Shown: positions 2,580 to 21,372 of the stretch, piece by piece
Position numbering within the stretch: position 1 is the stretch's first letter
Layout of the letters: every line of letters starts with the position of its first letter
Source: an uncultured Dehalococcoidia bacterium
GTDB lineage: Bacteria; Chloroflexota; Dehalococcoidia; UBA2247; RBG-13-53-26
Direction of reading: 5' to 3'
Assembly (NCBI GenBank): GCA_964617695.1
Contig: CAZTYW010000007.1
Coordinates: forward strand, 1 to 50,078
Length of the DNA: 50,078 nucleotides
Position numbers and translations under genes: made by a program
Notes under the pieces: generated by a model
Seen by the model: only the letters and a program-made list of their open reading frames with translations
The model's database searches: none
What the model was told of the DNA's origin: nothing

Positions 2580-3401
2580 ATGTTGCGTTCCGTTGGACTG
2601 CCCCGGTTACTGGTTCTCAGTGCCTTGCTGATCTCGCTTGGCTTGTCCGGAGCCTCGTGCGCTGGCGGTACCTCCGGGGCGCTGGCAGACTCCATGAGAG
2701 AGACACCGGCTGATGCCGCCCTGTTCGATTACTGGAATGTCAAGGCGATGCAGGACGACAGCGACCTGCACCCGCTGCTCGAAAGATGGAAGACCGAGAA
2801 GGAAGGCTGGCTGGACAGCTTCGGCATAGCAACCGGTCAGGTAGAGCACTTCTTCCAGTTCTCCCTGTACGGAAACAACGCCCTGATCGTCAGAGGGAGA
2901 CTTGATCGTGAACAGACCAGGGCACAGCTGACCAACCGCAACTACAACGACAAAGACTTCAAGCGCATGGAGGTCTGGGAGAGCCCTGATGGCAGAGACT
3001 GGCTGGCCGTGGCTAACGGGTCTCTGATTGCCGGCAGCAAGGACCCTGTCAAAGAGTCAATCAACGTCATCAAGGGGGAAAGCTCCCTCTATGATGACCC
3101 AGACGCCCGAGGGATAACAGACTGGCTCCCGGGCGGATTGCTGGTGCGCTTCCAAAGGTACAACCTAGCCCCCTATGAGGGGCTGGTCGCCGGTGGAGAA
3201 TCCTTCGAGAAGAAGGACAGAGACACACTCAGAGTCAAGCTGGCCTTCATGTTCGGCGAGCCCGACCAGGCGACCGCCGCCGTGGATGACATCGCCGAAG
3301 AGGTCGACGAAGACTACGACGAGGTCGACGCCAGGTATGATGGCAGATTCGTGATAGTGGACGCCGTTGTGGACATGGATGACCTGCTCAGGGTCCTCTA
3401 G
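2580..3401 (+). CDS. Putative lipoprotein of unknown function
   Basis: Signal peptide ending in lipobox-like GASC, acidic soluble domain. Confidence 0.65.
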   Translation: MLRSVGLPRLLVLSALLISLGLSGASCAGGTSGALADSMRETPADAALFDYWNVKAMQDDSDLHPLLERWKTEKEGWLDSFGIATGQVEHFFQFSLYGNNALIVRGRLDREQTRAQLTNRNYNDKDFKRMEVWESPDGRDWLAVANGSLIAGSKDPVKESINVIKGESSLYDDPDARGITDWLPGGLLVRFQRYNLAPYEGLVAGGESFEKKDRDTLRVKLAFMFGEPDQATAAVDDIAEEVDEDYDEVDARYDGRFVIVDAVVDMDDLLRVL

Positions 3402-4837: not shown

Positions 4838-4883
4838 CTCAAGTATTGGCTGTTTCCCTTCGCACCGGATTCCTCAACCCCGA

Positions 4884-6359: not shown

Positions 6360-8233
6360 TGCTGGGGCAGCAAACTGGGAGGTGACACCTTGATCACCGC
6401 ACTATACTCTGGAGGGCACACATCGAGGCAATTGCCGCACTTGACACACTTCGTTTGGTCTATGACCTTTGCTTTCCCTTTGTCACCGCTGATCGCTTCG
6501 CCAGGGCAGGTGAGCACACAGTGTTCGCACCCCCTGTCGCACTTCTCAGGAAGTATGTAGTAAGCAATCAGGTCCTTGCACACCAGTGCTGGGCATCGGT
6601 GTTCCAGGATGTGCGCTTCATACTCATCGCCAAAGTAGCGGAGGGTTGTCAGAACAGGGTTGGCCGACGTCTTGCCCAAGCCGCAGAGCGATCCTTCCCT
6701 GATGTCTTCAGCCAGTTCCACCAACAAGTCGAGTTGCTCTACCTTACCCCTACCGCTGGCGATGTCCGAGAGCACTTCGAGCGTCTGCTTGGTTCCCAGT
6801 CTGCACATGGTACACTTGCCGCAGGACTCCTTCTGGATGAAATCCAGGAAGTAGAGAGCAGCATCAACCATGCAGTTGTCCTCATCGAGGACTATCATAC
6901 CACCTGAGCCCATCATGGAGCCAGCTTCCCTGAGGGAATCAAAGTCAACCGGGGTGTCGATGAGGCTCTCGGGGATGCATCCCCCCGAAGGTCCACCGAT
7001 CTGTACCGCCTTGAGGCGCTTGTCCCCTGACACGCCACCGCCGACACCTTCAATCAGTTCCCGCAAGGTTGTGCCCATAGGCACCTCCACGAGTCCGGTG
7101 TACGCTATCTTCCCTGCCAGGGCAAAAACGGCTGTCCCCTTACTCCCCTCGGTCCCAATGCTGCTGAACCAGCTTGCTCCACGCTCAACAATCAACGGAA
7201 CGTTGGCGAAAGTCTTCACGTTGTTGAGCAGGGTCGGTCTCTGCCACAGCCCAGCCTCGACCGAGTGAGGTGGCCTGACCCTGGGCATGCCTCGCTTGCC
7301 TTCCACCGAATACATCAGGGCGCTCGACTCGCCGCAGACGAAGGCCCCAGCCCCCTGTACCAGCTCAATCCCGAAAGCGAAGCCGCTCCCCATGATGTCC
7401 TTCCCCAATAGGCCCAGCGACGTTGCCTGCTCCAGAGCGATCTTGAAACGCCTCACTGCCAGCGGGTACTCTGAGCGGACGTACATGTATCCGTGCTCGG
7501 CGCCCATAGCATAACCGGCTATGACCATCCCCTCCAGCACCGAGTGCGGGTCGCCTTCCAGGACCGCCCTGTCCATAAAGGCACCGGGGTCACCCTCGTC
7601 AGCGTTGCAGACAATGTACTTCGGCTGCCCTGGCGCATTGCGGCATAGCTCCCACTTCCTGCCGGTCGGAAAGCCGGCTCCTCCTCGCCCGCGCAAGCCC
7701 GATTCCTTGATCTCTGCGATTATCGCCTCGGCAGTCATTCCCAGCGCCTTCGCCAGGCTGCCGTAGCCGCCGACGGCGATATACTGGTCTATGTCCTCCG
7801 GGTCTATGACGCCGCAGTGGCGCAGCACCAGACGCAATTCCTGCTCAAAGCGGGGCAACTCCGGGATGGAAGGGACCCCCTCCTCGTCCAGTTCAAAGGT
7901 GCCCAGAGCAAGCTCGAGGCAGGGGTCATCACCCAGGACGTAGCCTTCAACAAGCCGCGGAACAAGCTGTGGGTCGACGTTCCCATAGCAAACGCTGAAC
8001 TCGCCGGGCTTAACGATTACCACCAGGGGCTCTGCGTAGCAGAGCCCAATACAGCCAACCTGGCTGACGACGGTATCGTCACTGTGCCTTTTCAGCTCCC
8101 TCTTGAAGGCTTCGACCACGTCCCCAGCACCAGCCGCCTCACCACACGTACCGGTACCAATGAGGATGCGGGTCTTCTGCTGGAGGGCTTCCCACTTCGA
8201 GTCTGCTTTGTGTCGGAACTCGTCGAAAGTCAT
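6323..8233 (-). CDS. NADH/FMN-binding HydB/NuoF-like subunit (copy 2)
   Basis: N-terminal thioredoxin-like Fe-S domain (TCG..GCIGLC), GLRGRGGAGFP, NADEGDPGAFMDR, GAFVCGE, GGPSGG, ESCGKCTMCR, C-terminal 2x[4Fe-4S]. Confidence 0.92.
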   Translation of the reverse strand: MTFDEFRHKADSKWEALQQKTRILIGTGTCGEAAGAGDVVEAFKRELKRHSDDTVVSQVGCIGLCYAEPLVVIVKPGEFSVCYGNVDPQLVPRLVEGYVLGDDPCLELALGTFELDEEGVPSIPELPRFEQELRLVLRHCGVIDPEDIDQYIAVGGYGSLAKALGMTAEAIIAEIKESGLRGRGGAGFPTGRKWELCRNAPGQPKYIVCNADEGDPGAFMDRAVLEGDPHSVLEGMVIAGYAMGAEHGYMYVRSEYPLAVRRFKIALEQATSLGLLGKDIMGSGFAFGIELVQGAGAFVCGESSALMYSVEGKRGMPRVRPPHSVEAGLWQRPTLLNNVKTFANVPLIVERGASWFSSIGTEGSKGTAVFALAGKIAYTGLVEVPMGTTLRELIEGVGGGVSGDKRLKAVQIGGPSGGCIPESLIDTPVDFDSLREAGSMMGSGGMIVLDEDNCMVDAALYFLDFIQKESCGKCTMCRLGTKQTLEVLSDIASGRGKVEQLDLLVELAEDIREGSLCGLGKTSANPVLTTLRYFGDEYEAHILEHRCPALVCKDLIAYYILPEKCDRGCEHCVLTCPGEAISGDKGKAKVIDQTKCVKCGNCLDVCPPEYSAVIKVSPPSLLPQQCEEKKSGSQTR

Positions 8234-8258: not shown

Positions 8259-8759
8259 TCAGGAGCTACTTTGTGGCTGACTGACCTGCCCCAAGTTGAC
8301 TAGAAGCTCTTCCACTTTGAAGGGAGTCAGCCTGGGGTGAATACCCTCGCCGACTACAGCCACCGGAGCCAGGACGCAGCAGCCAATGCAGGCAACCCGG
8401 TCGAGGCTGTATTCGCCATCGGAGGTAATGTCGCCCACCTTGATCTGGAGTTCCCTCTCCATCGCTTCCAGTACCAGCCTGCCCCCTCGCATATGGCAAG
8501 CCGTACCCAGGCACACCCTGATCGGATTTCTTCCCAGAGGCTTGAAGCGGAACTCATTGTAGAACGTGGCCACACCGTACACGGCGCTGGCTGGCACCTG
8601 GAGGTAATCAGCAGCTTCGAGCAGGGCCTCACGAGGCAGGTAACCGAGCTTGTGCTGTACTTCTTGCAGTACGGGGACGAGTTCTACCCTCTCTCTTCTG
8701 TGATGGGCTAGGATCGGCCTTAGTTCGGATATGAGCTCCTTGGAGGTGATAGCTTTCAT
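8259..8759 (-). CDS. HydC/NuoE-like [2Fe-2S] subunit (copy 2)
   Basis: VATFY, VCLGTACH, VACIGCCVLAPV. Confidence 0.92.
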   Translation of the reverse strand: MKAITSKELISELRPILAHHRRERVELVPVLQEVQHKLGYLPREALLEAADYLQVPASAVYGVATFYNEFRFKPLGRNPIRVCLGTACHMRGGRLVLEAMERELQIKVGDITSDGEYSLDRVACIGCCVLAPVAVVGEGIHPRLTPFKVEELLVNLGQVSQPQSSS

Positions 8760-9163
8760 ACTCTCATGCAGATCTCAGGCGGGTCCGCCACAGTCTCCCT
8801 GACATACCGAAGCATCTGATTCACACAGGCAATGGTAAGATCGGCCAGGTCCTCTCCTCGAGTATACCTGATCCTTTCGCCACAATAAAGCACACGAAGT
8901 CTGCTGGGGAACTCCTCGTCGGCCTGATCATAGACAAAGATGATCTCGATTCCTGGGAAAATCTCCTTGCTCATGGCCCAGGTTTCACCCCGCCCCAGAG
9001 ACTCCACCTTCCCCCCAATGTACCCGGCCAGCTTGGAGACGTCGTCCACGTAGGCCAGGGCCTCCTGCCTTGTCTCCACCTCGCGCTTCATGAACCCGTC
9101 ATGGGTACCCATAGGGCCCTCAATCTCCCTCAGACTCAACAGCTTCCTATCTCCGAGGCTCAC
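8756..9163 (-). CDS. DUF3786-like protein (acs-cluster accessory)
   Basis: FPGIEIIFVYDQADEEFPSRLRVLY...EDL resembles the DUF3786 C-terminus; follows cooC; ATGA overlap with hydC'. Confidence 0.6.
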   Translation of the reverse strand: MSLGDRKLLSLREIEGPMGTHDGFMKREVETRQEALAYVDDVSKLAGYIGGKVESLGRGETWAMSKEIFPGIEIIFVYDQADEEFPSRLRVLYCGERIRYTRGEDLADLTIACVNQMLRYVRETVADPPEICMRV

Positions 9164-9178: not shown

Positions 9179-9934
9179 TCAAAGTCCGACCTTGCTGGCG
9201 AGTCTCTTTACTCCCAGGCGAACAACGGAGTCCTCGGGGAGCTCCGTGATCGGCATGCCCTTCACCTCAAGATCGGCCAGCGCCGGCTCCTGGCCTATCG
9301 TCGTCACCAGGTCAAAACCATGCCTGTCAATCGTCTTCAATATCTCGGCAGGCAGTCCGTCGGGCGAGCGGTTGACGACCAGACAGACTTTGCCGACCTG
9401 CGTCCTCATTTCTCCTATCAGTCCCTTTATCTCCCCCGCCGTGTTGACACCTCTCTGTGTCAGGTCAGACACGATGACCAGCACGTCAACGTCCCTGGTT
9501 GTCTGGCGGCTGATGTGCTCAAGCCCGGCTTCACTGTCTATGACAACATACTCATAGTTGCGGCCCAGCCGGTCGATGGAGAGCCGCAGCATGTTGTTGG
9601 CGGCGCAATAGCAGCCCGGCCCCTCAGGGCGGCCAATGGCCAGAAGGTCGAATCCCCTGGACTCCACCAGCGCGGCCATTATCCGCGAATCAAGGTACTC
9701 CTGCTTGGGCATCGTGGGGCTGAGGCTGCCGGCCTTTATCGACTCGGTCATGTGCTCACGTATGCGGCCGACCGTCTCCTGCAGGGTCACGCCGAGTGCC
9801 TGATTGAGGTTGGTGGCAGGATCTGCGTCTATGGCCAACACAACTCCTCTGGTGGAGAGGAGCTGTATCAGGAGCGCCGAAATAGTCGTCTTGCCGGTCC
9901 CGCCTTTGCCGGCAACGACGATAGTGGTAGCCAT
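9179..9934 (-). CDS. cooC: CooC/AcsF nickel-insertion ATPase
   Basis: GKGGTGKTT Walker A, DADP, GRPEGPGCYC, DSEAGLEHISR. Confidence 0.93.
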   Translation of the reverse strand: MATTIVVAGKGGTGKTTISALLIQLLSTRGVVLAIDADPATNLNQALGVTLQETVGRIREHMTESIKAGSLSPTMPKQEYLDSRIMAALVESRGFDLLAIGRPEGPGCYCAANNMLRLSIDRLGRNYEYVVIDSEAGLEHISRQTTRDVDVLVIVSDLTQRGVNTAGEIKGLIGEMRTQVGKVCLVVNRSPDGLPAEILKTIDRHGFDLVTTIGQEPALADLEVKGMPITELPEDSVVRLGVKRLASKVGL

Positions 9935-9943: not shown

Positions 9944-11311
9944 CTAGTTCTTCAGGTTGGCGGCAAAGCCCGGCAGAAAACCGGGAATGTCGCTGGCTTC
10001 CCTCGGCCCCACCACAACCTTCCACCCCGGCAGCGCCTCTTCAAGCTCACCTTTGATTCTGGCTACCTTGCCGGGGATAACCAGCGTCCGCGTTTTCGCC
10101 TTGTCCTCCACGCCTGACCTCTTGAGGAAAGGAGCAATGGCGTCACCGTTGAACTTGCCTGCTGCCCAGGCGGTTAGCACGCCGAGACCCTCCGAGTCTT
10201 TCACCAGTAGCCACGATGGGGTCTTGCTTGATTCGATCTCCGCAGACACGATGAAGTAGGTCAGTGCCCAGTTGGTCGTGATCAGCACGGGTGAGTCATT
10301 ACCAGGCTCACCCACGGCGTACAGTTTCTCCTCCACGGAGAGCGGCATGCGAGGATCGGTGTATATGTTGAGCCTCTGCGTCAGGAGCGGCCGCAGCGAA
10401 TACTGGTCAAAGTCAGACAGCACGACGATGGAAGCAAACTTGATGATGGAGACGGCAGCAGTCAATATCTCCTTTAGCCCTTCCCTGGCAGTGAAACACG
10501 GGAACACGATGGTCGGGTAGCCGAGCGGCCTGAAGCTCTGCTTGACCGCTGCCCGCCTGATGAACGTCTGGTCCCTGATGACGTCCATCACGTTCTTGGA
10601 GCCGGGGTCGAGTACCAGATCGTCTAGCTTCTCTTCCTTCAATCTCGTGGTCAGGGCAACGAGCCCTTCAACACCGTCAGCGCGAACCCCAATCGGAGTA
10701 GGCTTTTCTTTGATCCTGGGGATGGACTTGTCGATGTTGCCCTTGGTGATCGGATACAGCAGCGGCCTCCTGTCCACACAGATGTCCCTGGCAGCGAAGA
10801 GCGCATCCGTATCCTCTGATATCAGCATAATGCCAACGTCAGTGCCGCCGTAGACCTTCCTTACCAGAGCTTCGTATCTGGCCCTGTCTCCTGATTCGAA
10901 TTGGAGAGCCAGCAAATCAGCCCTGAGAGTAAGGCCCACTACGTCAAACTGGAGTTGGGTTATCTTCCTTATTTTCTCGTCGACCTTCGCCTCATCCTCC
11001 TTGTCAGAGATGAGAAGCGCAATCCCCGTTTGGTGCACATAGGTCTTCTCGTGCCGGTAGACAACCTCTTCGTTACCTACCTGCAGGTCTTTCTCGCCCG
11101 AGCCTATCGTAACCAGCTTCATAGCTGGGGCCAACGCGTCCTCAAGCTCCTCCCTTGTTTCGGGAGACAGGTACGGGCACTTGTCGACAGTGGCTCCCCC
11201 GGAGGCCAGCTTCATGGCGAAGGCAAAACACGTCGGGAAGCCGCACTCCTTGCAGTTCTTCTTACCCGCTTCCGGAAGCTTTTTGACGATATCAGTTCCC
11301 TTGGCTGGCAT
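9944..11311 (-). CDS. acsC: Corrinoid iron-sulfur protein large (gamma) subunit
   Basis: NCKECGFPTCFAFAMKLA...CP [4Fe-4S], NIYTDPR, TTNWALTYF, GLGVLTAWAAGKF, GPREAS. Confidence 0.95.
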   Translation of the reverse strand: MPAKGTDIVKKLPEAGKKNCKECGFPTCFAFAMKLASGGATVDKCPYLSPETREELEDALAPAMKLVTIGSGEKDLQVGNEEVVYRHEKTYVHQTGIALLISDKEDEAKVDEKIRKITQLQFDVVGLTLRADLLALQFESGDRARYEALVRKVYGGTDVGIMLISEDTDALFAARDICVDRRPLLYPITKGNIDKSIPRIKEKPTPIGVRADGVEGLVALTTRLKEEKLDDLVLDPGSKNVMDVIRDQTFIRRAAVKQSFRPLGYPTIVFPCFTAREGLKEILTAAVSIIKFASIVVLSDFDQYSLRPLLTQRLNIYTDPRMPLSVEEKLYAVGEPGNDSPVLITTNWALTYFIVSAEIESSKTPSWLLVKDSEGLGVLTAWAAGKFNGDAIAPFLKRSGVEDKAKTRTLVIPGKVARIKGELEEALPGWKVVVGPREASDIPGFLPGFAANLKN

Positions 11312-11357: not shown

Positions 11358-12590
11358 CTAGACAGGCAACTCTACTTCGCCCTTGATCCAGGGATGCTCT
11401 ACCTTGTCGAGGAACGCCGCAAGTCCATCAGCGTCCTGCGCATCCTCTTCGGTAGCTATCTTATCGTACAGGTCCTCGGGTATGACCTCCTTGTACCTTT
11501 CCTTGATTTCCTTGGGCATCCACACCATCCTGTACAATCCGCCGTCGGCCTGGATGAACTTGGGCGACCTCAGGTACTCAAGGGCCATTCCCAGGGAGCC
11601 CTCCACCTGCCTGCCCCCAGAGGTCGTCCCGGCCATTGTGGAGAAACTCTCACCGATCACCGTCGGTCCGGCGAAATCCCTGTGCACCAGACCGAAGGCG
11701 TCTACCTCTGGTATGTAGAAGCAGATGGACTGGAAGCACCCGCAGGAGGTGTGGGGATGCTCAAAGGCACTGTGCAGATAGACCTGGTCGTACTCTCCCA
11801 GTGACTTTTCGACCGAGTTCTGGTTCACCCCGGTGTATTCACCTCTTGCCGGGTCAACGCACTCGCCCTTTTCCACCGCAAATATGGGCCCTTCGGGGTC
11901 CAGCTTGTAGGCCGCCCTGCCGTCAAACCAGTTGATGGCGCCGCAGTTGGCTATCCTCTCCGGCGTTATGACACACACATGGGTAGGAGCAAAGCTCTGG
12001 CACAGGACGCAGCCGTAGAACTCCTCTACGTCCTCTTCCTTCATGCCCCTCAGTCTCTCGTCCCTGGCGGCATAGATATTCATGGCATCAGACAGCAGTT
12101 CCTCGACCTTCTTCTCGTCCGTCACAAACGTAACTGCGATTTTCTCAATAGCCATCAGTTCCGAGGTGTACAGGAAGATGAGCATGTCGCCGATCTCTTT
12201 CAGGGAATTGAGCCCCCTCTTGAAAGAAGCCCGGTTCAACCTGATCCAGATGTCATTCCTCTGGTTCATGTGGTAGAGGCCCTCGATGTTGTTGCAGTAC
12301 ATGTGAATCCGTCTCTCGATCACCGGCTCCATGTCCTTCTCGAGTTCCTCGCCGGCGATATCGACCAGGATTGCCAGAGGCTGACTGCTGCCCTCTTCCA
12401 CGTCGGCTATGTCTGGGCCAATGATCTCCACCTTCTCATGCTCAATCTCATCCATCCCCTTGAAAGTACACAACTCAAACTTGTGCTTGATCTTGGGCCC
12501 GCCGAACTCGACGTACATGTCTTCTTTTCTGACGACCTCGCCTTCATACTGCGGCCCTATGTCAACATGAAAATCCGACATATCCACCAT
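11358..12590 (-). CDS. cdhC: Acetyl-CoA synthase beta subunit, archaeal type (lacks the bacterial N-terminal domain)
   Basis: 410 aa; YGCVLCQSFAPTHVC...NCGAINW and HTSCGCF A-cluster ligands; KFIQADGG..R.VWMP. Confidence 0.93.
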   Translation of the reverse strand: MVDMSDFHVDIGPQYEGEVVRKEDMYVEFGGPKIKHKFELCTFKGMDEIEHEKVEIIGPDIADVEEGSSQPLAILVDIAGEELEKDMEPVIERRIHMYCNNIEGLYHMNQRNDIWIRLNRASFKRGLNSLKEIGDMLIFLYTSELMAIEKIAVTFVTDEKKVEELLSDAMNIYAARDERLRGMKEEDVEEFYGCVLCQSFAPTHVCVITPERIANCGAINWFDGRAAYKLDPEGPIFAVEKGECVDPARGEYTGVNQNSVEKSLGEYDQVYLHSAFEHPHTSCGCFQSICFYIPEVDAFGLVHRDFAGPTVIGESFSTMAGTTSGGRQVEGSLGMALEYLRSPKFIQADGGLYRMVWMPKEIKERYKEVIPEDLYDKIATEEDAQDADGLAAFLDKVEHPWIKGEVELPV

Positions 12591-12592
12591 TG

Positions 12593-13138
12593 CTATTCTT
12601 CCTCCTTCAGACTTGAAATTAGTTCTTCCAAGAACGCCCGCCAGTCCTCGTCCTTCCGGATGTTGGGAAGGGAGTAGTCAGCATTGGGATAGACGTACTT
12701 GCACAGCGTCATCGTCCTCAGGTGCGGGGCAAAATGCTTCAGCGCAGAAAGCCCCTGATTCCCCAGGTCGCTCCTGAAACCAAAGAAGATGATCAGGTCG
12801 TGATTGCCCTCGTTCCTGACCCCATGCCATTCTGGGTCCTTCAAGGCGTTAATTATCTCCACGACATCGTACTCGGAGTCTGGCCTGCCCCCGAGCTCCA
12901 CTATCTTCCCCCTGGTATGAGCCGTAGCGCATATGGGAATATTGCCCGCCGCAGCCAACTCCAGAGCGTACTCCATCAGAAGCCTGTCACCCAGAGACAG
13001 CTGCAGCAGCCTGGGCCCCAACACCAACAGAGGTCGCCTCGCCTGCTTGATCAACTCAGCGTACTCAGTGGCGTCGTCCAGCACTATGGCCGACTTCACC
13101 CCCGAAAGCACATTCACCCGATGAAGAGGCATCACCAT
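12593..13138 (-). CDS. cdhB: CODH/ACS epsilon subunit
   Basis: IKQARRPLLVLG, LKDPEWHGVRNEGNHDLIIFFG, LSALKHFAPHLRTMTLCKYVYPNADYSLPN. Confidence 0.92.
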   Translation of the reverse strand: MVMPLHRVNVLSGVKSAIVLDDATEYAELIKQARRPLLVLGPRLLQLSLGDRLLMEYALELAAAGNIPICATAHTRGKIVELGGRPDSEYDVVEIINALKDPEWHGVRNEGNHDLIIFFGFRSDLGNQGLSALKHFAPHLRTMTLCKYVYPNADYSLPNIRKDEDWRAFLEELISSLKEEE

Positions 13139-13159
13139 CTCGCTTTCCTCCTTCCTGGT

Positions 13160-13798
13160 CTACAGCTTGCCGGCGAGGAAATCGTCAAGCGTGAACCCGA
13201 AATACGTTCCGTCTGATTCAGCACCGATCTTTCCGGTCGGGCAGACCTCAGTGGCCCACTCCATGCCCGCCGCAAAGACCTTCTTGGCCCTCTCAGGAAA
13301 GAAGACAACCCTTCTTTCGATTCCGCGCCCCACGAAGCCGATAGCCCGGGCCCCCAGGACTTCTTCGCAGTAGCGGACGCAAAGGCCACAGAGAATGCAC
13401 CTGGTCGACTCTACGTTCAGCCGAGACTCGAAACGGTGCACATCAGCCCCATATTCGTCGGCTAGCTTCCTCAACTCTCCGCCGACATCCCCGTTGAACA
13501 TCGCCTGAGGCGCCACCAACTCAATAAGCAGCTTGCGTATTTTCTCTATCCTGGGTGTCCGAGTTCTCACCACCAGCCCTTCCTCAGCCGGATAGCCGCA
13601 CGAGGCTACCACCCGAACCCTGCCGTTCTTCTCCGCCTCAACACTGCAGACCCGGCAGGCGCCGTAGGGTACCAGCTTCTGGTGCACGCAAAGAGTGGGT
13701 ATGTCAATGTTTGCCTCCCTTGCCGCCTCCAGGACAGTAGCTCCCTGCCTGGCCTGTACCTGCTTGCCATCTATTTCAATAGTCACCGTTTCACCCAT
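13160..13798 (-). CDS. HydA/NuoG N-terminal-like Fe-S subunit with no catalytic domain
   Basis: IPTLC...GACRVC...ASC [2Fe-2S]; CILCGLCVRYC; GFVGRG; CPTG; only 212 aa. Confidence 0.85.
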   Translation of the reverse strand: MGETVTIEIDGKQVQARQGATVLEAAREANIDIPTLCVHQKLVPYGACRVCSVEAEKNGRVRVVASCGYPAEEGLVVRTRTPRIEKIRKLLIELVAPQAMFNGDVGGELRKLADEYGADVHRFESRLNVESTRCILCGLCVRYCEEVLGARAIGFVGRGIERRVVFFPERAKKVFAAGMEWATEVCPTGKIGAESDGTYFGFTLDDFLAGKL

Positions 13799-13811
13799 CT
13801 TGTCCCTCCTT

Positions 13812-15722
13812 CTATCGACTGACCTTGGTGCCTACTGCCGGAGGCGCCGGCACAGGCTCGCCTGAGACCTTCACCACGGCATCAAAGCGAGGCGGACACA
13901 CATCAAAACACACGCCGCATTTGGTGCATTTCTCCTGGTCAATCCAGTGAATCAGGCCCTTGTCCCCATTCACTGCACCTGCAGGGCAATTCCTCAAACA
14001 GATAAGACAGGCCTTGCATTTCTCAGCATCAATATAGTAAGAGGTGAGATTCTTGCAGAACCTGGCCGGGCAGCGCTGCTCAATTATGTGAGCTTGGTAC
14101 TCATCCCTGAAATACTTCAGAGTCGTCAGGACGGGGTTGGCAGCCGTGCTCCCCAGAGCACAAAGCGCTGCATCAGCCAGTACCTCGGCTACCTCCTCGA
14201 TCACATCGATGTCCTCCGGCCTCCCCTCCCCGTTGCAGATGTCAGTCAGAACCTTCTGCAGCAGCCGCAGCCCTTCTCGGCAGGGTATGCATTTACCACA
14301 GGACTCTCCGCAGAGGAAATCAATGAAGTACCTGGCCACGTCCACCATGCACGTATCTTCATCCATAACCACCATGCCGCCGGACCCCATCATTGATCCA
14401 AGGTCGGTCAAAGCGTCGAAGTCAACCGGCGTGTCCAGACACTGCGCCGGAATTATGCCACCCGAGGGGCCACCGGTCTGGACTCCCTTGAACTCCTTGC
14501 CCTTGAGTATGCCACCGCCGATGTCGTAGATTATCTGCCTCAAGGTCATACCCATAGGCACTTCCACAAGTCCGGTGTTATTCACCTTGCCCACCAGGGA
14601 GAAGATCTTGGTCCCTTTGCTCCCCTCCGTCCCTGTGGACCGGAACCAGTCGGCTCCTCTGTCTATGATGAGCGGAACAGTGGCGTAGGTCTCTACGTTG
14701 TTAAGGTTGGTGGGTCTTCCCTTTATCCCGCTTACAGCGGTGTGTACGTACTTGAGCCTCGGCTCACCCACCCTGCCTTCGATGGCAGCCATCAAAGCGC
14801 TCGATTCTCCGGAGACAAATGCTCCTGCCCCGCGGTGAACTGTCACTGCGAAATTGAACCCAGAACCGAGGATACTCTCGCCAAGAAGCCCGTGCTCTTC
14901 AGCCTGCTTCAGGGCAACATTCAGGTTCTCGCAGGCGAGAGGATACTCCTGACGCACGTAGACAAACCCTTTGTTGGCCCCGATAGCATAACCACTGAGC
15001 ATGAGACCCTCAATAACGCCGTGGGGGTTGCCCTCCATCAGAGACCTGTCCATGTAGGCGCCTGGGTCGCCTTCGTCGCAGTTGACCACCACATACCGGG
15101 GCCCGTTGGGCGCACTTCTGGTCTCCTCCCACTTCCTCCCAGCCGGGAAGCCTCCGCCACCTCTGCCTCTCAGGTCCGCCTCGTTGACTTGCGCCAGTAC
15201 TTCATCTGGGCTCATCCTGGTCAGGGCCTTGGCCAGAGCATTGTACCCGCCAAGGGCGATGTAGTCCTCGATACTCTTGGGGTCTATGAGCTTGTTATTG
15301 CCGAACACTATCCGGCTCTGATGCGCATAGAACGGGATGTCCGATTCTTTGGCTATCTTGTTGCCCGTCACCGGATCGACGTATAGCAGGCGCTCGATAA
15401 TGTCATTGTTGGCCACCGCCTTCACCAACTCCGGAGCGTCCTCAGGCTTCACCTTGACATAGGAGATCTCCTCGGGAAAGACAACCACCACCACACCCTT
15501 TTCGCAGAACCCGTGGCAGCCGCTGGCCCTGGCAGCCACCCTGTCCCCCAACCCCTGGGCCTCGATCTGCTGCACAACCGCGGCAAAAACGCTCCGAGCG
15601 CCGTAGGTCTGGCAACCAGTCCCTGAACACACCACTATGGTCAGTCGGTTTGGGTCCCTCCGGGCCAGTATCTCCGCCCTCAGCTTCTCCAGCTCCTCAG
15701 CCGACGCGAGTCTATTCGCCAT
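13812..15722 (-). CDS. NADH/FMN-binding HydB/NuoF-like subunit (copy 1)
   Basis: CSGTGC..GCHGFC N-domain, LRGRGGGGFP, NCDEGDPGAYMDR, GGPSGG, ESCGKCIPCREG, C-terminal 2x[4Fe-4S]; start at ATG 15722 after AAGGAGG. Confidence 0.92.
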   Translation of the reverse strand: MANRLASAEELEKLRAEILARRDPNRLTIVVCSGTGCQTYGARSVFAAVVQQIEAQGLGDRVAARASGCHGFCEKGVVVVVFPEEISYVKVKPEDAPELVKAVANNDIIERLLYVDPVTGNKIAKESDIPFYAHQSRIVFGNNKLIDPKSIEDYIALGGYNALAKALTRMSPDEVLAQVNEADLRGRGGGGFPAGRKWEETRSAPNGPRYVVVNCDEGDPGAYMDRSLMEGNPHGVIEGLMLSGYAIGANKGFVYVRQEYPLACENLNVALKQAEEHGLLGESILGSGFNFAVTVHRGAGAFVSGESSALMAAIEGRVGEPRLKYVHTAVSGIKGRPTNLNNVETYATVPLIIDRGADWFRSTGTEGSKGTKIFSLVGKVNNTGLVEVPMGMTLRQIIYDIGGGILKGKEFKGVQTGGPSGGIIPAQCLDTPVDFDALTDLGSMMGSGGMVVMDEDTCMVDVARYFIDFLCGESCGKCIPCREGLRLLQKVLTDICNGEGRPEDIDVIEEVAEVLADAALCALGSTAANPVLTTLKYFRDEYQAHIIEQRCPARFCKNLTSYYIDAEKCKACLICLRNCPAGAVNGDKGLIHWIDQEKCTKCGVCFDVCPPRFDAVVKVSGEPVPAPPAVGTKVSR

Positions 15723-15732
15723 GGTCCCTCCT

Positions 15733-16191
15733 TTAACTTGCGGCCTCAAATATGCGCTCAAGCTCCTCGGTAGGGGGGTTGCTATGGTATACTCCGTCCA
15801 CTACCATGACCGGCCCCAGGGCACAGCAACCCAGGCAGTTGACCGTGTCCAGACTGAAACGCATGTCCCCCGACGTCTCCCCTGGCTCCAAGTCCAGTTG
15901 GTCTTTGATCCTGTCCACCAGACGGGGCGCTCCCCGCACCTGGCAGGCCGTACCCACGCAGACCGAGCACGAATGGCGGCCCTTGGGAGAGAGGCTGAAG
16001 GCCTTGTAGAAGGTCGCAACCTGGTAAACCCGGGTAAGAGGCACTTTCAACTGTTTACTTACCTCCGCTAGCGCCTCCTCAGGAAGCCAGCCAAAGCCGT
16101 TCTGCAGATCCAGCAGGATCTGGATTAACATATCCCTGTCTTTTACATAGCCATCAACGACCTTGCTTACCAACCCGGCAACACCAGCCAA
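15733..16191 (-). CDS. HydC/NuoE-like [2Fe-2S] subunit (copy 1)
   Basis: VATFYKAF, VCVGTACQVRG, VNCLGCCALGPV; TTG start after AAGGAGG. Confidence 0.92.
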   Translation of the reverse strand: MAGVAGLVSKVVDGYVKDRDMLIQILLDLQNGFGWLPEEALAEVSKQLKVPLTRVYQVATFYKAFSLSPKGRHSCSVCVGTACQVRGAPRLVDRIKDQLDLEPGETSGDMRFSLDTVNCLGCCALGPVMVVDGVYHSNPPTEELERIFEAAS

Positions 16192-16260
16192 TTCTGCACC
16201 TCCTTTTTCCTCATATCTCGATCCAGGTGAGCGAGGCGGGCACCCCGCCCCCACCTGCCG

Positions 16261-16872
16261 CTATTCTTCGGGCCTGCGCTTCTGCTCACGCCAGGCCCTT
16301 ATCGCCTCCTCCAGCTCCTTCTCTCGGCCATACTTCCTGGCCAGACCCCGGAGTACCCTTTCCTCGCGCGCCAGAAGAGGATGAAACCGGGGGCCTTTCC
16401 TGATCTGCTTGATGTTGTTGAGCAGATATGCGTATTCACCGCGAGCGATGGCTTCCTCCAGCACACGGCTCTCGATTCCGTATTTCTGCTGAATCGCCCT
16501 CGCCTTGCCAATGAGGTGAATGTTCTCGTTTTCGATCATGTTAACGTAATAGTTGAACCTTCTTACCTCGGCTTCCCTGACAGCTTCGTCTATCCTGTCT
16601 TCGAGCTCCGCCAGCTCCACGCCATAGTCGCGGGCCAGCTCCCGCACAAGTTCAGTGTAGACCTCTATGTCCTCGCCCTCCCTGATCCTTTCCAGGAAAC
16701 TCGAGATCTTCTTGCCTACACCTTTCTGCACGGCCTCCCTCAGCCAGGCGTCGCCAAGACCCTGCTCTTTCGCCAGCCTTTCCGCAGGCCGAATACAGAT
16801 AAGCTCACCCACCTCGATCCGGCTTATGTACCGCAAAAGCTTCTCTGTATCCGCCACGAACTTGTCGATCAT
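16261..16872 (-). CDS. Hypothetical alpha-helical protein with four ~45-55 aa repeats
   Basis: ATG 16 nt after the cdhA stop with GGAAGG upstream; repeated R.LA..YG...L.EA motif; charged, no TM segment. Confidence 0.75.
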   Translation of the reverse strand: MIDKFVADTEKLLRYISRIEVGELICIRPAERLAKEQGLGDAWLREAVQKGVGKKISSFLERIREGEDIEVYTELVRELARDYGVELAELEDRIDEAVREAEVRRFNYYVNMIENENIHLIGKARAIQQKYGIESRVLEEAIARGEYAYLLNNIKQIRKGPRFHPLLAREERVLRGLARKYGREKELEEAIRAWREQKRRPEE

Positions 16873-16888
16873 TTGCCTTCCCGATTGG

Positions 16889-19201
16889 TTAACGTATGAC
16901 CGCCTCCAGACGGACCTTGCTGGGATAGGTACCAATCAGCGTAGGTAGAGTCAGGGCCGGCTTCGGTTTCCAACCGATTTCCTTCAAGTAGGTCATGGCC
17001 TCCCTCTTGTAAACGATCGGCAAGTCCTTGTCGGTCCTCACAAAGTGTTGAACGTCGTCAGGGAGTCCAGGGCCTATGTACTTCCTGTAGATGGAGATGT
17101 AGTGGTTCAGTTTCAGGGCCCGTCCCGCTGCAGTATCATTCCTTCTCATGCACAGCCTGGCTATTGTCACCATTGCTTTCTCTTTCGTTTCGGCAACATA
17201 TGCCAGGTGCTCCGGGGATGGCTCGCCAGTGTCCACGAGTTCACCTTTCCTCCCATCCCTCACCGTCCAGTCATCCTCCACCTTCTTGGAGAGGTATAGC
17301 CTCCTGTACTTGGAGGAATGCGGGCCCAGTAGCACCGGGACTCCCAGCCTGTTACAGCCGGTGCCGATGCTGGCCGCCTTCTGCGAGTAGGCACCCCACG
17401 CTACGCCAACCGCGGCAACGCGGTTGAGGGCATAGTCGGCGATAACCTCGTAGTTCGCCCTCAACGGAAGGCCGGCGAAGATATTGGCTATCTTGATCAC
17501 CGCGCCGGCAATGTGGGCGTTGGCTACGCAGGAGCCAACGTTAAGTACGCCTCCCGCATCGAAATCGGGTGGGTACTTCTCGTATAATGTCTGCCCGTTC
17601 TCATCCCTCCTCATGCCCGCTACCATGGCCGAACAGCCGCTGAGTACTACGATGTACTTTCTCTTGGCGAACTCGTCAACCATGTCGTAGATATCATCTA
17701 TGTCAGGGAAATTGGAGCATCCTACAAAAGCGATTACGCCCGGTATCGTACCCATCACAATTGGCGCGCCGACATTCCTTATCTCTTTGTCCATGATCGG
17801 GCCACGCCCCTGCCTGATGTTGTAGCTTTCCCTGCTGGCCACCAACTGCATCAGCCGGAAAACGGGTACGTCGTGGGGACATTCTTCCTCACACTTGCCA
17901 CAGCCGAGGCACTTGGCGAAGATCTCCGTGAGCCTGTCCAGACTCCCTTTGGCAACCTCTGCTATTCCCTCGCCAATCAGCAGGAAGTTGGGGCACACCC
18001 TCTCACACATACCGCACTGGACGCACCTTTTCGCCAGTTCCTGACCCTCCTCCAGAGACAGCAAGTCCTTCTTCCTCCTGGGGGCCAGCTCCAGTGCCAC
18101 TTTCACTGCCACCTCTCCAGCCTTCTCATGATCCAGAATAAGGACCTGCTTGCCCTCGTCAACGATAGCCCTCACTATCGCGTCGGCATCCCGATCCGAC
18201 GCATCCTCCAGGCCGTAGCAAGCCTTGTCGGAAGAGGCTATCAACGCGGAACCCGCCTTCTTTGCTTCCGCAGGCATGTCGCTCCTGATGCACTGCTCGT
18301 CCGTCAGTATCACGTCGGCTATGCCACTGCGCACAAAGTAGAGTTGCCTGGAAAGAGGACCTATAACCTTGGCCCGGTCTGAATACCTGGTCGTCTCCAG
18401 TGCGGTGCAGCATATGCCGCCAACCTCAACCTTGTCATTCAGGTCGTTCTCTCGAAGATAGTCGATAACGTTGGTCGAAGATGCCGGGTTGTGGCCCACT
18501 ACGGCAATCGTGGGCTTACTCGTGTCTATCGCCCCCCAGCCCGTCTCCACCAGGGGGACGTCGGCCACAGATGTCGGGTAATTGAACCCGGTGATCTGCG
18601 CCAGATCAGCCACCTCCATACCCACGTGATCCAGCATGCCGATATGAAGGGCCTTCGATTCGTAGTCCAGGTAGCTGCCCTCCTGCCCCGTGTGGCAGGC
18701 GTCGAGCATATGGACAACCTGCTCGCTTATGTACTCGGTCACCTTCAGCAGGTCGCCGAGGGTCTCCGGCTTCATGCCCAGGACAGTCCGGATGTTGGGT
18801 GCCTCGATGGCGACGTTGTCCCCGAGGTCTATCTTCTTGTCCGGGCCGTACTTGTCTATCAGGTAGTGAAGGATGTGAAAACCGTGCGCCGCATGCGCCG
18901 AACACCCTATCAGACAGGCGAGCAAGATCATCCTGGCCTGCTGTGTGGCCGTGTCTATGCCACAGGCACCTCTCTTGCCCTCTGTCAGGTCGCACTTGCC
19001 ATAGGTACAGAGGCAGCAGAGGTCGCAAATGGGAGCATACCAGGGCTTATAGGTCTTCAGAAGCCTCATGTCCCAATTGCGCAAATCGGTCGGCCCAGGC
19101 ATGGGCGTGGGCCCAACCGGCTCCCACTCATCTTCGGGCTTTATTACCTGCTCAACTTGAGCTTCATGAAAAGACTTCCTCTTCTGATTCACTTCTGCCA
19201 T
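16889..19201 (-). CDS. cdhA: Ni-CO dehydrogenase alpha subunit, archaeal type
   Basis: GPTPMP, CDLCCLCTYGKCDL...ACG, HAAH, GHN, GGICCT, DEQC, extra ferredoxin clusters CVQCGMCERVCP and CLGCGKCEEECP, VGC, SGC, GSCVAN, WGAYSQKA. Confidence 0.96.
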   Translation of the reverse strand: MAEVNQKRKSFHEAQVEQVIKPEDEWEPVGPTPMPGPTDLRNWDMRLLKTYKPWYAPICDLCCLCTYGKCDLTEGKRGACGIDTATQQARMILLACLIGCSAHAAHGFHILHYLIDKYGPDKKIDLGDNVAIEAPNIRTVLGMKPETLGDLLKVTEYISEQVVHMLDACHTGQEGSYLDYESKALHIGMLDHVGMEVADLAQITGFNYPTSVADVPLVETGWGAIDTSKPTIAVVGHNPASSTNVIDYLRENDLNDKVEVGGICCTALETTRYSDRAKVIGPLSRQLYFVRSGIADVILTDEQCIRSDMPAEAKKAGSALIASSDKACYGLEDASDRDADAIVRAIVDEGKQVLILDHEKAGEVAVKVALELAPRRKKDLLSLEEGQELAKRCVQCGMCERVCPNFLLIGEGIAEVAKGSLDRLTEIFAKCLGCGKCEEECPHDVPVFRLMQLVASRESYNIRQGRGPIMDKEIRNVGAPIVMGTIPGVIAFVGCSNFPDIDDIYDMVDEFAKRKYIVVLSGCSAMVAGMRRDENGQTLYEKYPPDFDAGGVLNVGSCVANAHIAGAVIKIANIFAGLPLRANYEVIADYALNRVAAVGVAWGAYSQKAASIGTGCNRLGVPVLLGPHSSKYRRLYLSKKVEDDWTVRDGRKGELVDTGEPSPEHLAYVAETKEKAMVTIARLCMRRNDTAAGRALKLNHYISIYRKYIGPGLPDDVQHFVRTDKDLPIVYKREAMTYLKEIGWKPKPALTLPTLIGTYPSKVRLEAVIR

Positions 19202-19211: not shown

Positions 19212-20117
19212 CTATCCGAGAATTTGCCTTACCAGCTTGAGCGTTTCCGGATGCCTCAAGACAGCTATGTTTGCACCGGCCAGAAGAAGCGATACCGCGG
19301 TTATCCCTTCCCACAGTATCCCCTGCTCCTTGTTCTCCTTGGCCTCTCTGGTCTTCCAGCACTCTCCTGCCAGGTCTGCAATGAGAGGCATCTGGGTCAT
19401 CGCATCCTTGAAAACCACTCCAGTCTGCTTCGTTCTCTCCATTATCGTAAAGCTGTACTCCATGCCATACCCCAGTGCGGAAGTCAGTGGGTCAATCACG
19501 ATCCTTTCCGCGGGGAACGACTTGGCCAGCTTTATGTTCAATTCCTTCATGAGGTTTATGTCCAAAGGCGACTGCGCGATTACGGCGTGCCCATGCTCCT
19601 GGGCCGCTTTGGCTATCTCTCCGAAATTCTCCTTGAGTGCAGGACCCAGAAGGAGACTCTCACCCTTGCAGGCGGCCGCCACCTTCGCCAGTACCTCGGC
19701 ATCCTTCTTGTCATCCCCCGACCCATAGACAATGAGGGGAACGCTTATTGCCGCAGCCACCTTCTTGGCCACTTCGGCTGCCCCATCAGCCGGCGCATTC
19801 TTGCCCGTCGGATCCGTGCTGATGAGCTTCAGACATACCAGGTCCGCCCCGTACTCCACGCATTTATGCGCCCACTTCACGGGATCGGAGACAACGTCCT
19901 TGTATGGCTCGAGCACCCACTCGGCCCACCCTTCAGGCTCCATGTCCAGGACCTCCAGTGCAAACCTGGGAGGATTGGGGATTGAACCGTCATCAAAGAA
20001 GTTGAATGCAAGCTTGTTCTCACCGCCGATCTTCACAGCCTTCGCCCCGGTGCCCAGGGTCACCTCTCGTACACTGCCGCCATACGACTCAACCGGTGCC
20101 TGATAGTCCATAGTCAC
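19212..20117 (-). CDS. acsD: Corrinoid iron-sulfur protein small (delta) subunit
   Basis: IGGE...F..G..PN.P, STDP, SPLDINLMKELN, IDPLTSALGYGMEYS..IMER, WE..TA..LLLAGA..VLRHP. Confidence 0.93.
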   Translation of the reverse strand: MTMDYQAPVESYGGSVREVTLGTGAKAVKIGGENKLAFNFFDDGSIPNPPRFALEVLDMEPEGWAEWVLEPYKDVVSDPVKWAHKCVEYGADLVCLKLISTDPTGKNAPADGAAEVAKKVAAAISVPLIVYGSGDDKKDAEVLAKVAAACKGESLLLGPALKENFGEIAKAAQEHGHAVIAQSPLDINLMKELNIKLAKSFPAERIVIDPLTSALGYGMEYSFTIMERTKQTGVVFKDAMTQMPLIADLAGECWKTREAKENKEQGILWEGITAVSLLLAGANIAVLRHPETLKLVRQILG

Positions 20118-20135: not shown

Positions 20136-21017
20136 CTAGTCTTCCAGCCAGCCGTGGGAGTAGAGCGTCTCAGCCATCAACACCTTGACCGTCTTAACGT
20201 AGTCGCGCTCCTTCGGCGAGATAGATGACATGCCGACCTCTTCCCCATCCATGACTCTGTAGATGAGATCGACCATCTCCGGCATCTCACCGTTGTTCAG
20301 GCTTATCAGCTCTTTGTCAAGAGCATCGGCAATCACCGAGTATTGACCGTACCTGCCCAGCATCACCATCATGGTGCGGTTCAGGATGCCCCTCAGCTCT
20401 TCAGGCGTGCCATTCGAGACATTCGAAAGACCTATTGTCGACTTCACACCGGGGAGGATATCGCCGATTATCTTCATGAATTCCAGCGCCTGCACGATCT
20501 GCCCCTGGTCGGCACTGACCGGAAGCAAGACAGGATCGATCCACAAGTCCTCATTGGGAATGCCGAGTTCGTTGGCATACGCTGCGGTCTCCATTATGCT
20601 CTCGACTCTCCCCTCAGCGTCGGGAGGGCAACCCTTGTCCGAAAACACAGAGAGCACAAGATCGGTATTGTATTTCTTGGCCAGCGGCAGCATCTGCTCT
20701 TTGCTATCGGTGCGACCGGAAGCTGAGTTCAGCAGCGGCCTTGCCTTGGTACAAGCCCTCAGTCCTGCCTCCATAGCCACGGGATTCAGGGTGTCTATCG
20801 ACAGAGGCAAATCCGCAACCTCCTGCACCGTCTTCACCAGCCATTCCGCAGTCTCCTCAGGGTTCTTCCTTGAAGGGCCGAGATTGATGTCTATGTAGTG
20901 GACCCCTGCCTCGGTCTGCGCTATCGCCAGTTCCTGGATTACCCTGGCATTGCGTTCCTTCACTGCTGTTGAGACATCCTTCGAAATGATGTGTATGTTC
21001 TCGCCGATGAGGATCAT
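20136..21017 (-). CDS. acsE: Methyltetrahydrofolate:corrinoid Fe-S protein methyltransferase
   Basis: MILIGENIH, IDINLG, LSIDT, LLNS, WIDP, GLSNVSNG pterin-binding barrel; first gene of the acs operon. Confidence 0.9.
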   Translation of the reverse strand: MILIGENIHIISKDVSTAVKERNARVIQELAIAQTEAGVHYIDINLGPSRKNPEETAEWLVKTVQEVADLPLSIDTLNPVAMEAGLRACTKARPLLNSASGRTDSKEQMLPLAKKYNTDLVLSVFSDKGCPPDAEGRVESIMETAAYANELGIPNEDLWIDPVLLPVSADQGQIVQALEFMKIIGDILPGVKSTIGLSNVSNGTPEELRGILNRTMMVMLGRYGQYSVIADALDKELISLNNGEMPEMVDLIYRVMDGEEVGMSSISPKERDYVKTVKVLMAETLYSHGWLED

Positions 21018-21243
21018 TGATTGCCTCCTTCCGCCTTCCAGAAAATAAAAACACCCCCGCTGCCAGCTAGGGCTCAGGGGCTAGAAACTGTGTCACCGTG
21101 GCTGTAACCCGCCCTGGTGACTTCAAATGCCGTATCGAAGCGCAACCCTGCAGGACAAAGGGCTACTACTGAAATTCCTTCGGCCTTTCCTGCTGCGTGA
21201 TAAACGCAATAGCAGAAATCCCTCGACCGCTCCATTCGAACTG

Positions 21244-21272
21244 ATTATACCAAGGCTGAGAATTCATGGCAA
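21244..21272 (-). promoter_or_regulatory. Sigma70-type promoter of the acs/cdh operon
   Basis: TTGCCA-N17-TATAAT with a TG extended -10 on the minus strand. Confidence 0.75.
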
Positions 21273-21371: not shown

Positions 21372-21372
21372 A

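Follow-up and report, generated by a model that had tools for sequence, protein, structure and literature searches.

A Bfu-type gene cassette between cdhA and cdhB of Dehalococcoidia: a candidate NAD(H)/ferredoxin module for an archaeal-type carbon monoxide dehydrogenase

The genes cdhA and cdhB, encoding the alpha and epsilon subunits of a carbon monoxide dehydrogenase (CODH), are separated in an uncultured Dehalococcoidia bacterium by four genes, X, bfuC1, bfuB1 and bfuA', which together encode a candidate accessory module of the Bfu type, predicted to act on NAD(H) and ferredoxin. They lie in a stretch of 50,078 nucleotides (nt), called the window below, which is the whole of contig C7 of genome G000 (1.95 Mb, 95 contigs, 89.5% complete). 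An earlier note on this DNA had read the insertion as part of an electron-bifurcating CODH/acetyl-CoA synthase (ACS) in which CdhA is the catalytic partner and CO2/CO is coupled directly to NAD(H) and ferredoxin. This interpretation is partly supported: the gene order suggests, without proof, that CO2/CO chemistry is wired to NAD(H), and we put the probability that the module is functionally coupled to CdhA and the epsilon subunit (CdhA-epsilon) at about 0.5. Bifurcation itself and direct docking via BfuA' would carry lower odds than functional coupling.

The six genes were found where the earlier note had placed them, tightly packed on one strand, with intergenic gaps of 6-21 nt as calculated from their coordinates (aa, amino acids):

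cdhA, archaeal-type CODH alpha subunit: 16889..19201, minus strand; TIGR00314, 1081 bits against a cut-off of 781
X, a charged 203-aa protein with four repeats and no Pfam or NCBIfam family: 16261..16872 (alternative TTG start 16935), minus strand
bfuC1 (hydC/nuoE-like), [2Fe-2S] thioredoxin-like subunit: 15733..16254, minus strand; PF01257, 6e-46
bfuB1 (hydB/nuoF-like), long form: 13812..15722, minus strand; PF01512, SLBB, PF10589 and two C-terminal Fer4 domains
bfuA' (hydA/hoxU-like remnant), 212 aa: 13160..13798, minus strand; PF13510 and PF22117
cdhB, CODH epsilon subunit: 12593..13138, minus strand; TIGR00315, 128 bits against a cut-off of 101; best solved relative 1ytl_A, E 1.3e-24

The arrangement is not an assembly artefact, since the same gene order recurs in five other genomes and 16 metagenome contigs. 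The insertion is conserved in relatives, as the synteny survey called for in the earlier note now establishes: 22 loci carry it, namely the window, the five genomes (G057, G169, L063, L065, L075) and the 16 contigs, which were recovered with a profile of the 24 known X clusters, and it always sits at the cdhA-cdhB junction. All 16 contigs keep the order cdhA-X-bfuC-bfuB-bfuA'-cdhB as far as they extend, with cdhA to the left of X in 12 and bfuC to its right in 15, and bfuA' is followed by cdhB in the window, in the five genomes and in all nine metagenome loci that reach that far. X was found in 4 of the 401 sampled genomes of the class, and two of these, G057 and G169, match the window's gene order throughout. 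The cassette is thus rare among reference genomes and diverse in metagenomes, cassette-type BfuA' alone forming at least 120 distinct 90%-identity clusters in public data. In G169 itself (L038, G169:C2, 5709-8937), the reading frames of cdhD and cdhA are each broken in two but the remaining operon, cassette included, is intact, which is either an assembly indel error or early decay.

The earlier note had seen no catalytic subunit for the module in the window, and genome-wide searches agree, with no match on contig C7 to the H-cluster domain (PF02906), the NiFe large subunit (PF00374) or the Mo-pterin domain (PF00384); by the H-cluster search, the genome as a whole contains no FeFe hydrogenase. 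It encodes eight BfuB genes. Those on contigs C14, C43 and C31 are within a few kb of Mo-pterin, formate dehydrogenase (Fdh)-like genes, a BfuA-type gene and a distance of 5-8 kb separate those on C26 and C12 from NiFe large-subunit genes, and the one on C19 directly follows the alpha/beta genes of pyruvate:ferredoxin oxidoreductase (POR). Only the two BfuB modules embedded among the cdh genes have no nearby partner besides CODH/ACS, and because the other six lie near candidate partners of their own, this accounting favors CODH as the partner of the cassette. Four of the eight BfuB proteins (C14, C43, C26, C12) are fusions of about 1030-1055 aa with a C-terminal extension of about 400 aa, and the C43 fusion stands between an Fdh-like gene and a MetF gene.

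BfuB1 has the long HydB architecture that the earlier note had assigned to it. Its core comprises PF01512 (8e-41), an SLBB domain (PF10531) and PF10589 (5e-31), with a conserved N3-type [4Fe-4S] site (C475, C478, C481, C521) and the motifs DEGDPGAYMDR and GGPSGG in the translation. An N-terminal [2Fe-2S] domain, a weak PF01257 match, carries four conserved Cys (C32, C37, C69, C73), and the Cys of a Zn/B2-type site (C458, C551, C556) and of the C-terminal 2x[4Fe-4S] domain (C569, C572, C575, C579 and C599, C602, C605, C609) are all kept. The protein aligns with the HydB of a bifurcating NiFe hydrogenase, 7t2r_B, over residues 26-616 (E 7e-224) and over its full length with the solved bifurcating 8a6t_B and 7p5h_B; the non-bifurcating Nqo1 of complex I covers residues 151-550 only. 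According to the accessible text of Schut 2022 (PMC9304861), which defined the Bfu family, characterized non-bifurcating BfuB homologues lack both the N-terminal 2Fe-2S and the C-terminal 2x[4Fe-4S] domains; the Zn/B2-type site likewise counts among the features missing from non-bifurcating homologues. With BfuC1 (PF01257) and a BfuA' containing clusters A1 and A2, all the sequence features of a HydABC/BfuABC-type module are present. In a maximum-likelihood tree the BfuB1 of six genomes form one clade (UFboot/SH-aLRT 100/99), sister to the genome's own POR-linked BfuB (support 100/100), to which BfuB1 is 58% identical. Near the FMN site, the FVCGE motif has Ser for Cys (residue 304) in each of the six cassette BfuB1; in the same alignment the POR-, Fdh- and NiFe-linked BfuBs keep the Cys, as do two of five BfuB2, the window's among them, while the other three BfuB2 have Ser.

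BfuA' had been described as an N-terminal fragment of HydA/NuoG, and its domain content (PF13510, PF22117) bears this out; the protein is, however, more reduced than stated, with ligands for A1 and A2 only. Those of the A1 [2Fe-2S] cluster (C37, C48, C51, C67) and of the A2 [4Fe-4S] cluster (C134, C137, C140, C186) are invariant in 29 sequences, in line with the statement that all BfuA contain A1 and A2 in the part of Schut 2022 (PMC9304861) available. The His-Cys3 motif of A3 is absent from 15/15 cassette BfuA', there is no catalytic domain, and the C-terminal tail, YFGFTLDDFLAGKL in the window, represents a conserved tail common to the same 15. The best solved relative is WorA (9mqx_A, E 1.2e-29). 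Among the best 120 of 957 90%-identity clusters of relatives, all of 198-215 aa, A2 occurs in 120 and A3 in none, A4 is present in 109 and missing from 11, and the tail pattern is found in 110, with near variants in 9 of the other 10. A phylum-wide sample queried with BfuA' yielded a cassette-type copy in the window's genome only. Another match, in G067, is 55% identical and is followed not by cdhB but by dGTPase-like and primase-like open reading frames (ORFs), identified by eye with no family search.

On the CODH side, the archaeal-type CdhA with two extra ferredoxin clusters invoked by the earlier note is confirmed, the TIGR00314 score being above cut-off. The protein combines a Prismane domain with a 2x[4Fe-4S] insert whose Fer4 domains occupy residues 384-445, and its best solved relative is 8riu_A (E 3.5e-265). 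It is not a CooS-type CODH, reaching 80 bits with the CooS model TIGR01702 for a cut-off of 478, and its closest relatives belong to Dehalococcoidia metagenome-assembled genomes (MAGs).

In the mechanism that we propose, X-BfuC-BfuB-BfuA' would be a four-gene accessory cassette whose third partner is most likely the CODH component CdhA-epsilon. Electrons of the C-cluster would leave via the peripheral [4Fe-4S] clusters of CdhA, pass into the short wire of BfuA', to A2 and then A1, and next reach the BfuBC core, which would divide them between NAD+ and ferredoxin. Run acetogenically, the module would let NADH and reduced ferredoxin jointly drive CO2 reduction at low internal CO. The usual stoichiometry of Bfu enzymes is 1:2 NADH to reduced ferredoxin.

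The history of the cassette can be read from its neighbors. At the 80 CdhA loci nearest to the window's, drawn from a species-level genome collection, cdhA and cdhB adjoin directly in 63, a DUF166 gene lies between them in 12, bfuC-bfuB-bfuA' without X in 3, and the contig ends in 2. A clean indel of 3.18 kb, running from the cdhA stop codon to the cdhB ribosome-binding site, sets locus L144 apart from L073. With dS near saturation, dN/dS is about 0.05-0.10 for bfuC, bfuB and bfuA' (0.04-0.07 for bfuA' taken separately) against 0.06-0.14 for the cdh genes, and cassette divergence follows that of CdhA (45 pairs, not independent of one another, give r = 0.87 for BfuB and 0.85 for BfuA'). This parallel divergence and the low dN/dS point to an old, co-inherited accessory that has often been lost.

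A number of observations weigh against coupling to CdhA through BfuA'. The cassette is dispensable, cassette-less CdhAs being 92.8-95.2% identical to cassette-bearing ones; its distribution on the CdhA tree implies at least six gains or losses, and monophyly of the cassette-bearing CdhAs is rejected (approximately unbiased test, p-AU 1e-80, for a group defined after the first tree had been seen). Convergent, cassette-specific CdhA residues find little support. In the column scoring 26 columns passed the threshold; of the 21 variable columns with top scores, 8 fall in the ferredoxin-like domain, to which 47 of all 314 variable columns belong (hypergeometric p = 0.006), and one lineage is responsible for this signal, while the CdhAs of L136, L137, L143 and L144 resemble their cassette-less neighbors. 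The apparent lack of independent cassette-specific substitutions fits a module placed on a pre-existing ferredoxin-docking surface and equally fits no docking at all. The Cys triplet of A4 (CxxCxxC) is lost in 5 of the 15 cassette BfuA', including the window's lineage; in the tungsten enzyme WorABCSL, A4 receives electrons from the partner cluster at 10.7 A (PMC12318220), so that in the window a partner cluster would need to approach A2 directly. The A4-less BfuA' is nevertheless under strong purifying selection; either it docks in another geometry or its wire has another use. An X homologue of 46% identity in G173 (L039, G173:C111, 703-1299) is the sole X seen outside a cdh context; it lies on a 3.4-kb contig between a radical-SAM-like and an Lgt-like gene (by eye, with no family search). 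Finally, the E0' of CO2/CO, -520 mV, is below those of both NAD and ferredoxin (Table 1 in the accessible text of Schut 2022, PMC9304861), and bifurcation would therefore be thermodynamically sensible only at very low CO. The same problem and the low-CO argument are raised there for Codh-Bfu, and from the Nernst relation we infer a shift of about +30 mV per tenfold drop in CO.

The repeated gain and loss of the cassette beside an almost unchanged CdhA, and the loss of A4 in the window's lineage, would also suit a module that is co-expressed with CODH and never docks on it, as either a free-standing NAD(H)/ferredoxin complex balancing the ferredoxin pool of CODH or one whose third partner is encoded elsewhere, the position of the genes reflecting co-regulation only. 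The downstream pair BfuC2-BfuB2, which has no adjoining BfuA, is in keeping with such an arrangement, as are the many BfuA-less BfuBC pairs whose third substrate is not evident from their neighbors, as reported in the available sections of Schut 2022 (PMC9304861). We nevertheless regard it as unlikely. BfuABC deprived of a third redox partner would have no exergonic reaction driving NADH-to-ferredoxin transfer, and the other six BfuB genes of the genome each have a candidate partner within a few kb; moreover, the succession of bfuA' and cdhB at every locus that extends far enough is tighter than co-regulation needs, and the conserved tail at the C-terminus of BfuA' is reminiscent of the way WorA serves as an adaptor. 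A less probable alternative is a non-bifurcating, HoxEFU-like diaphorase for CODH, in which electrons of CO oxidation would go to NAD+, or NADH would be coupled to a redox poise of CODH, and no ferredoxin branch would be obligatory. HoxEFU has the same three-subunit domain set, the nearest NCBIfam names are HoxE for BfuC1 (148 bits, cut-off 224) and HoxU for BfuA' (115 bits, cut-off 333), all below cut-off, relatives of BfuA' are publicly annotated as 'bidirectional [NiFe] hydrogenase diaphorase subunit', and CO oxidation is exergonic with NAD+ alone. HoxF-type proteins, however, are not known to carry the extra N- and C-terminal cluster domains of BfuB1, in which every Cys of the N-terminal 2Fe-2S and C-terminal 2x[4Fe-4S] sites is retained, even if sequence alone is no proof of bifurcation; and while HoxEFU belongs to bidirectional NiFe hydrogenases, no hydrogenase genes adjoin the cassette in the window.

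The module might instead serve another step of the Wood-Ljungdahl pathway, methylene-tetrahydrofolate reductase (MetFV) or the reductive activation of the corrinoid Fe-S protein. In Acetobacterium woodii, the NuoF-like RnfC2 feeds MetFV, and a MetV-like gene (PF12225) is found a few genes downstream of BfuB2 in related loci (L058). Yet no MetF gene lies in the window: of the genome's three, one is on C43 next to its own fused BfuB and Fdh, one on C4 next to a NiFe hydrogenase, and one on C3; two RACo-type activases are likewise encoded elsewhere in the genome, and the cassette lies between two CODH genes and not beside the corrinoid or methyltransferase genes, all of which makes this assignment improbable. 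Most doubtful of all, and already disfavored, is a decaying or selfish insertion devoid of present function. It could account for the repeated loss of the cassette, for the erosion or absence of X in several loci, for the loss of A4 in one lineage and for the split cdhA and cdhD of G169; but all four cassette genes are intact in the window, dN/dS remains at 0.05-0.19 over saturating dS, the cofactor ligands of BfuB, A1 and A2 are all kept, and the 120 or more cassette-type BfuA' clusters speak against a gene on its way out.

Functional coupling to CdhA-epsilon has parallels, proposed or characterized, each differing from it in some respect. The remark of the earlier note that it knew of no characterized complex of this kind stands in one respect, as the Codh-Bfu of Schut 2022 (PMC9304861), proposed from gene order and represented by four sequences of BfuB clade 49 from Firmicutes (Acetohalobium arabaticum, Clostridium cellulovorans), is itself described as uncharacterized in the accessible text; it has to be softened in another, as a CO-linked Bfu had already been proposed there for CooS-type CODH. 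As far as that text goes, Codh-Bfu and the present cassette share BfuABC genes interleaved with CODH genes, CO as third substrate and the same gene-order argument. Codh-Bfu, however, involves a CooS-type enzyme with extra Fe-S subunits and is confined to Firmicutes, whereas here an archaeal-type CdhA-epsilon stands in a complete CODH/ACS operon of Dehalococcoidia; its BfuB belongs to clade 49, whereas BfuB1 is sister to POR-linked BfuB on a tree built without the clade references of Schut 2022; and the present BfuA' is a WorA-like short form. Judged from its genes, the cassette would be a new form of the still hypothetical CO-linked Bfu, built on an archaeal-type CdhA in Dehalococcoidia, as opposed to the CooS-type proposal in Firmicutes.

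The closest structural model is WorABCSL of Acetomicrobium mobile (PDB 9MQX; PMC12318220), a characterized Type 2 Bfu enzyme and the second-best solved match of BfuB1. Its BfuA, WorA, is likewise short (247 aa) and lacks A3 and the catalytic C-terminal domain, the catalytic module being separate and recruited by the C-terminal helix of BfuA; BfuA' is similarly devoid of a catalytic domain. The partner, however, is a tungsten aldehyde oxidoreductase and not a CODH, and WorA keeps A4 and has a Zn finger, whereas the window's BfuA' has no A4 and a different tail. The closest paralogue is the Por-Bfu of Dehalococcoidia (the C19 copy), predicted in the available text of Schut 2022 (PMC9304861), whose BfuA is also short and without A3. 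Its genes follow those of the partner, pyruvate:ferredoxin oxidoreductase, in one string, and its 243-aa BfuA, unlike BfuA', has A4 and extra C-terminal Cys. The F420-reducing CODH of Ca. Ethanoperedens thermophilum (alpha2-epsilon2-zeta2; PDB 8RIU), whose alpha subunit 8riu_A is the best solved match of the window's CdhA, shows experimentally that an archaeal-type CdhA-epsilon can work with an operon-encoded flavin/Fe-S module in place of ferredoxin as acceptor: in the published sections available (PMC11493965), zeta binds where alpha and epsilon meet and receives its electrons from peripheral cluster 4. That module is a single FrhB-like F420 reductase with FAD, archaeal and unrelated to BfuABC. 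In the full-text literature covered, no BfuABC or NuoEF genes are described between cdhA and cdhB, with the reservation that subscription journals were thinly covered and that supplementary tables might list such clusters.

CODH/ACS is thought to depend on low-potential ferredoxin, and the question on which the module bears is how ferredoxin is supplied or disposed of in subsurface Chloroflexota without Rnf; Rnf (PF03116) was not found in the present genome, which is 89.5% complete. If the coupling is real, a Bfu wired to an ACDS-type CODH would for the first time connect the archaeal-type enzyme with flavin-based electron bifurcation and would supply a second, independently evolved case for the hypothetical Codh-Bfu idea, and estimates of ATP yield would change for acetogenesis and acetate oxidation in marine sediments. 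With three or four genes the module is compact and suits experiment, and nature offers variants with and without the cassette at 95% identical CdhAs and with and without cluster A4.

The remaining genes of the operon extend the picture. The minus-strand gene string runs from about 21017 to 3398 and reads acsE, cdhD, cdhA, X, bfuC1, bfuB1, bfuA', cdhB, cdhC, cdhE, a CooC-like ATPase, DUF3786, bfuC2, bfuB2 and two ADP-forming acetyl-CoA synthetase-like genes; the members not yet listed are:

acsE-like methyltransferase (pterin-binding), first gene of the operon: 20136..21017, minus strand; PF00809, 2e-18; collinear in 74 related ORF sets
cdhD/acsD-like small corrinoid Fe-S protein subunit: 19212..20117, minus strand; PF03599, 4e-46
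cdhC, acetyl-CoA synthase (A-cluster) subunit: 11358..12590, minus strand; NF003379, 645 bits; TIGR00316 above cut-off
cdhE/acsC-like large corrinoid Fe-S protein subunit: 9944..11311, minus strand; NF003195, 548 bits
CooC/AcsF-like P-loop ATPase, which we take to be CooC from its operon context: 9179..9934, minus strand; PF13614 and PF01656
DUF3786 protein: 8756..9163, minus strand; PF12654, 1e-7
bfuC2, second NuoE/HydC-like subunit: 8259..8759, minus strand; PF01257, 5e-45
bfuB2, second long-form NuoF/HydB-like subunit, with no adjoining BfuA: 6323..8233, minus strand; assigned by domains and a match to 9bov_B, E 4.5e-225
two ADP-forming acetyl-CoA synthetase-like genes at the end of the string: 3398..6359, minus strand; PF13607 and PF13380 in each
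best sigma-70-like promoter match, upstream of acsE: 21244..21272, minus strand; 11/12 positions with an extended TG, a consensus match only

The CODH/ACS is of the hybrid form, with archaeal CdhABC (TIGR00314, TIGR00315 and TIGR00316 all above cut-off) and bacterial AcsCDE (acsE-like PF00809), and this hybrid gene order is common to 80 related loci. Consensus matching, the only method applied, found no terminator-like site on the minus strand from 21017 to 5261. Two minus-strand ORFs upstream of acsE (window 21166-22395; 204 and 176 aa) have no Pfam family, and the best promoter-like site lies inside the first of them, which may not be a real gene.

The second HydC/HydB pair of the same operon (8759-8259 and 8233-6323) had been overlooked by the earlier note. 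Of 63 related CODH/ACS loci, 58 have BfuC2-BfuB2 downstream of cdhE, and they are spread over Chloroflexota, Thermodesulfobacteriota/Syntrophales and Coprothermobacterota, and BfuB2 forms a clade of 49 loci (support 100/99) that is sister to Fdh-linked BfuB and whose N-terminal domain has 3 aligned Cys only. In L113, a MAG labelled Dehalococcoidaceae, a third set of genes, BfuC-BfuB-(281-aa ORF)-BfuA, lies between cdhD and cdhA (4430-9621) in addition to the usual pair after cdhE; its BfuA is long (680 aa), with an A3 motif and a Mo-pterin-like domain. As these three (the cassette, the pair after cdhE and the L113 BfuCBA) belong to separate BfuB lineages, cdh operons have acquired Bfu modules on at least three occasions. 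The gene immediately upstream of acsE is HoxU-like in 22 of 60 loci and encodes about 220 aa with A1, A3 and A2; A4 may be present or absent, and its Cys are degenerate in the Syntrophales copies.

It is tempting, if rather doubtful, to extend the argument to bacterial hybrid CODH/ACS as a rule: all would be Bfu-coupled, the modules hard-wiring the C-cluster to a bifurcating core, so that NADH and reduced ferredoxin jointly drive CO2 to enzyme-bound CO and acetyl-CoA cleavage yields both. If true, Bfu coupling would halve the demand of the carbonyl branch for low-potential ferredoxin in Rnf-less, energy-starved subsurface bacteria. Bolder still is a variant in which the peripheral clusters of CdhA would dock on the ferredoxin-like domain at the C-terminus of BfuB and replace free ferredoxin on the low-potential branch. 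A BfuBC pair near-universal at hybrid CODH/ACS operons is not stated in the full-text literature covered, supplementary tables of which might list such clusters; the available text of Suzuki 2018 mentions in passing, in one sentence, a nuoEF pair near the hybrid CODH/ACS cluster of an NPL-UPA2 MAG.

The cdhA-cdhB junction hosts alternative accessory genes, given the DUF166 gene present there in 12 loci. This gene encodes about 231 aa, Cys and His among them conserved, and occupies about 12300-13040 in locus coordinates (L097-L099, L101, L103, L107, L109, L110, L114, L116, L118, L119), the PF02593 match (1.5e-58) having been obtained on L099 alone.

Protein X is the first cassette gene in most lineages; it is absent from the cassettes of L063, L065 and L075 and reduced to a remnant in L143 and L144. 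It has four weak internal repeats of about 50 aa (local scores 34-43, against 19.9 +/- 4.2 and a maximum of 39 for shuffles), is represented by 24 protein clusters among 5.8 billion proteins, and evolves under purifying selection (dN/dS 0.12-0.19, dS near saturation). Its profile retrieved nothing from the PDB below E 0.024, and the protein atlas gave no usable match. A compensation of A4 loss by gain of X was rejected, X co-occurring with A4-containing BfuA' in L129, L134, L135, L137 and L138.

The remainder of the window consists of housekeeping and fatty-acid genes, with no hydrogenase or formate dehydrogenase. Public sequencing runs containing this stretch are three DNA runs of one marine-sediment study, all marine-sediment metagenomes, with no RNA run listed among them. 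Elsewhere in the genome, two open frames of about 840-856 aa (G000:C24:9868-15700) have weak matches to Prismane/CODH families (E 2e-7 and 1e-5) and a 640-aa protein (G000:C61:10820-12508) has a strong Prismane-family match; these may be further CODH-like or hybrid-cluster proteins.

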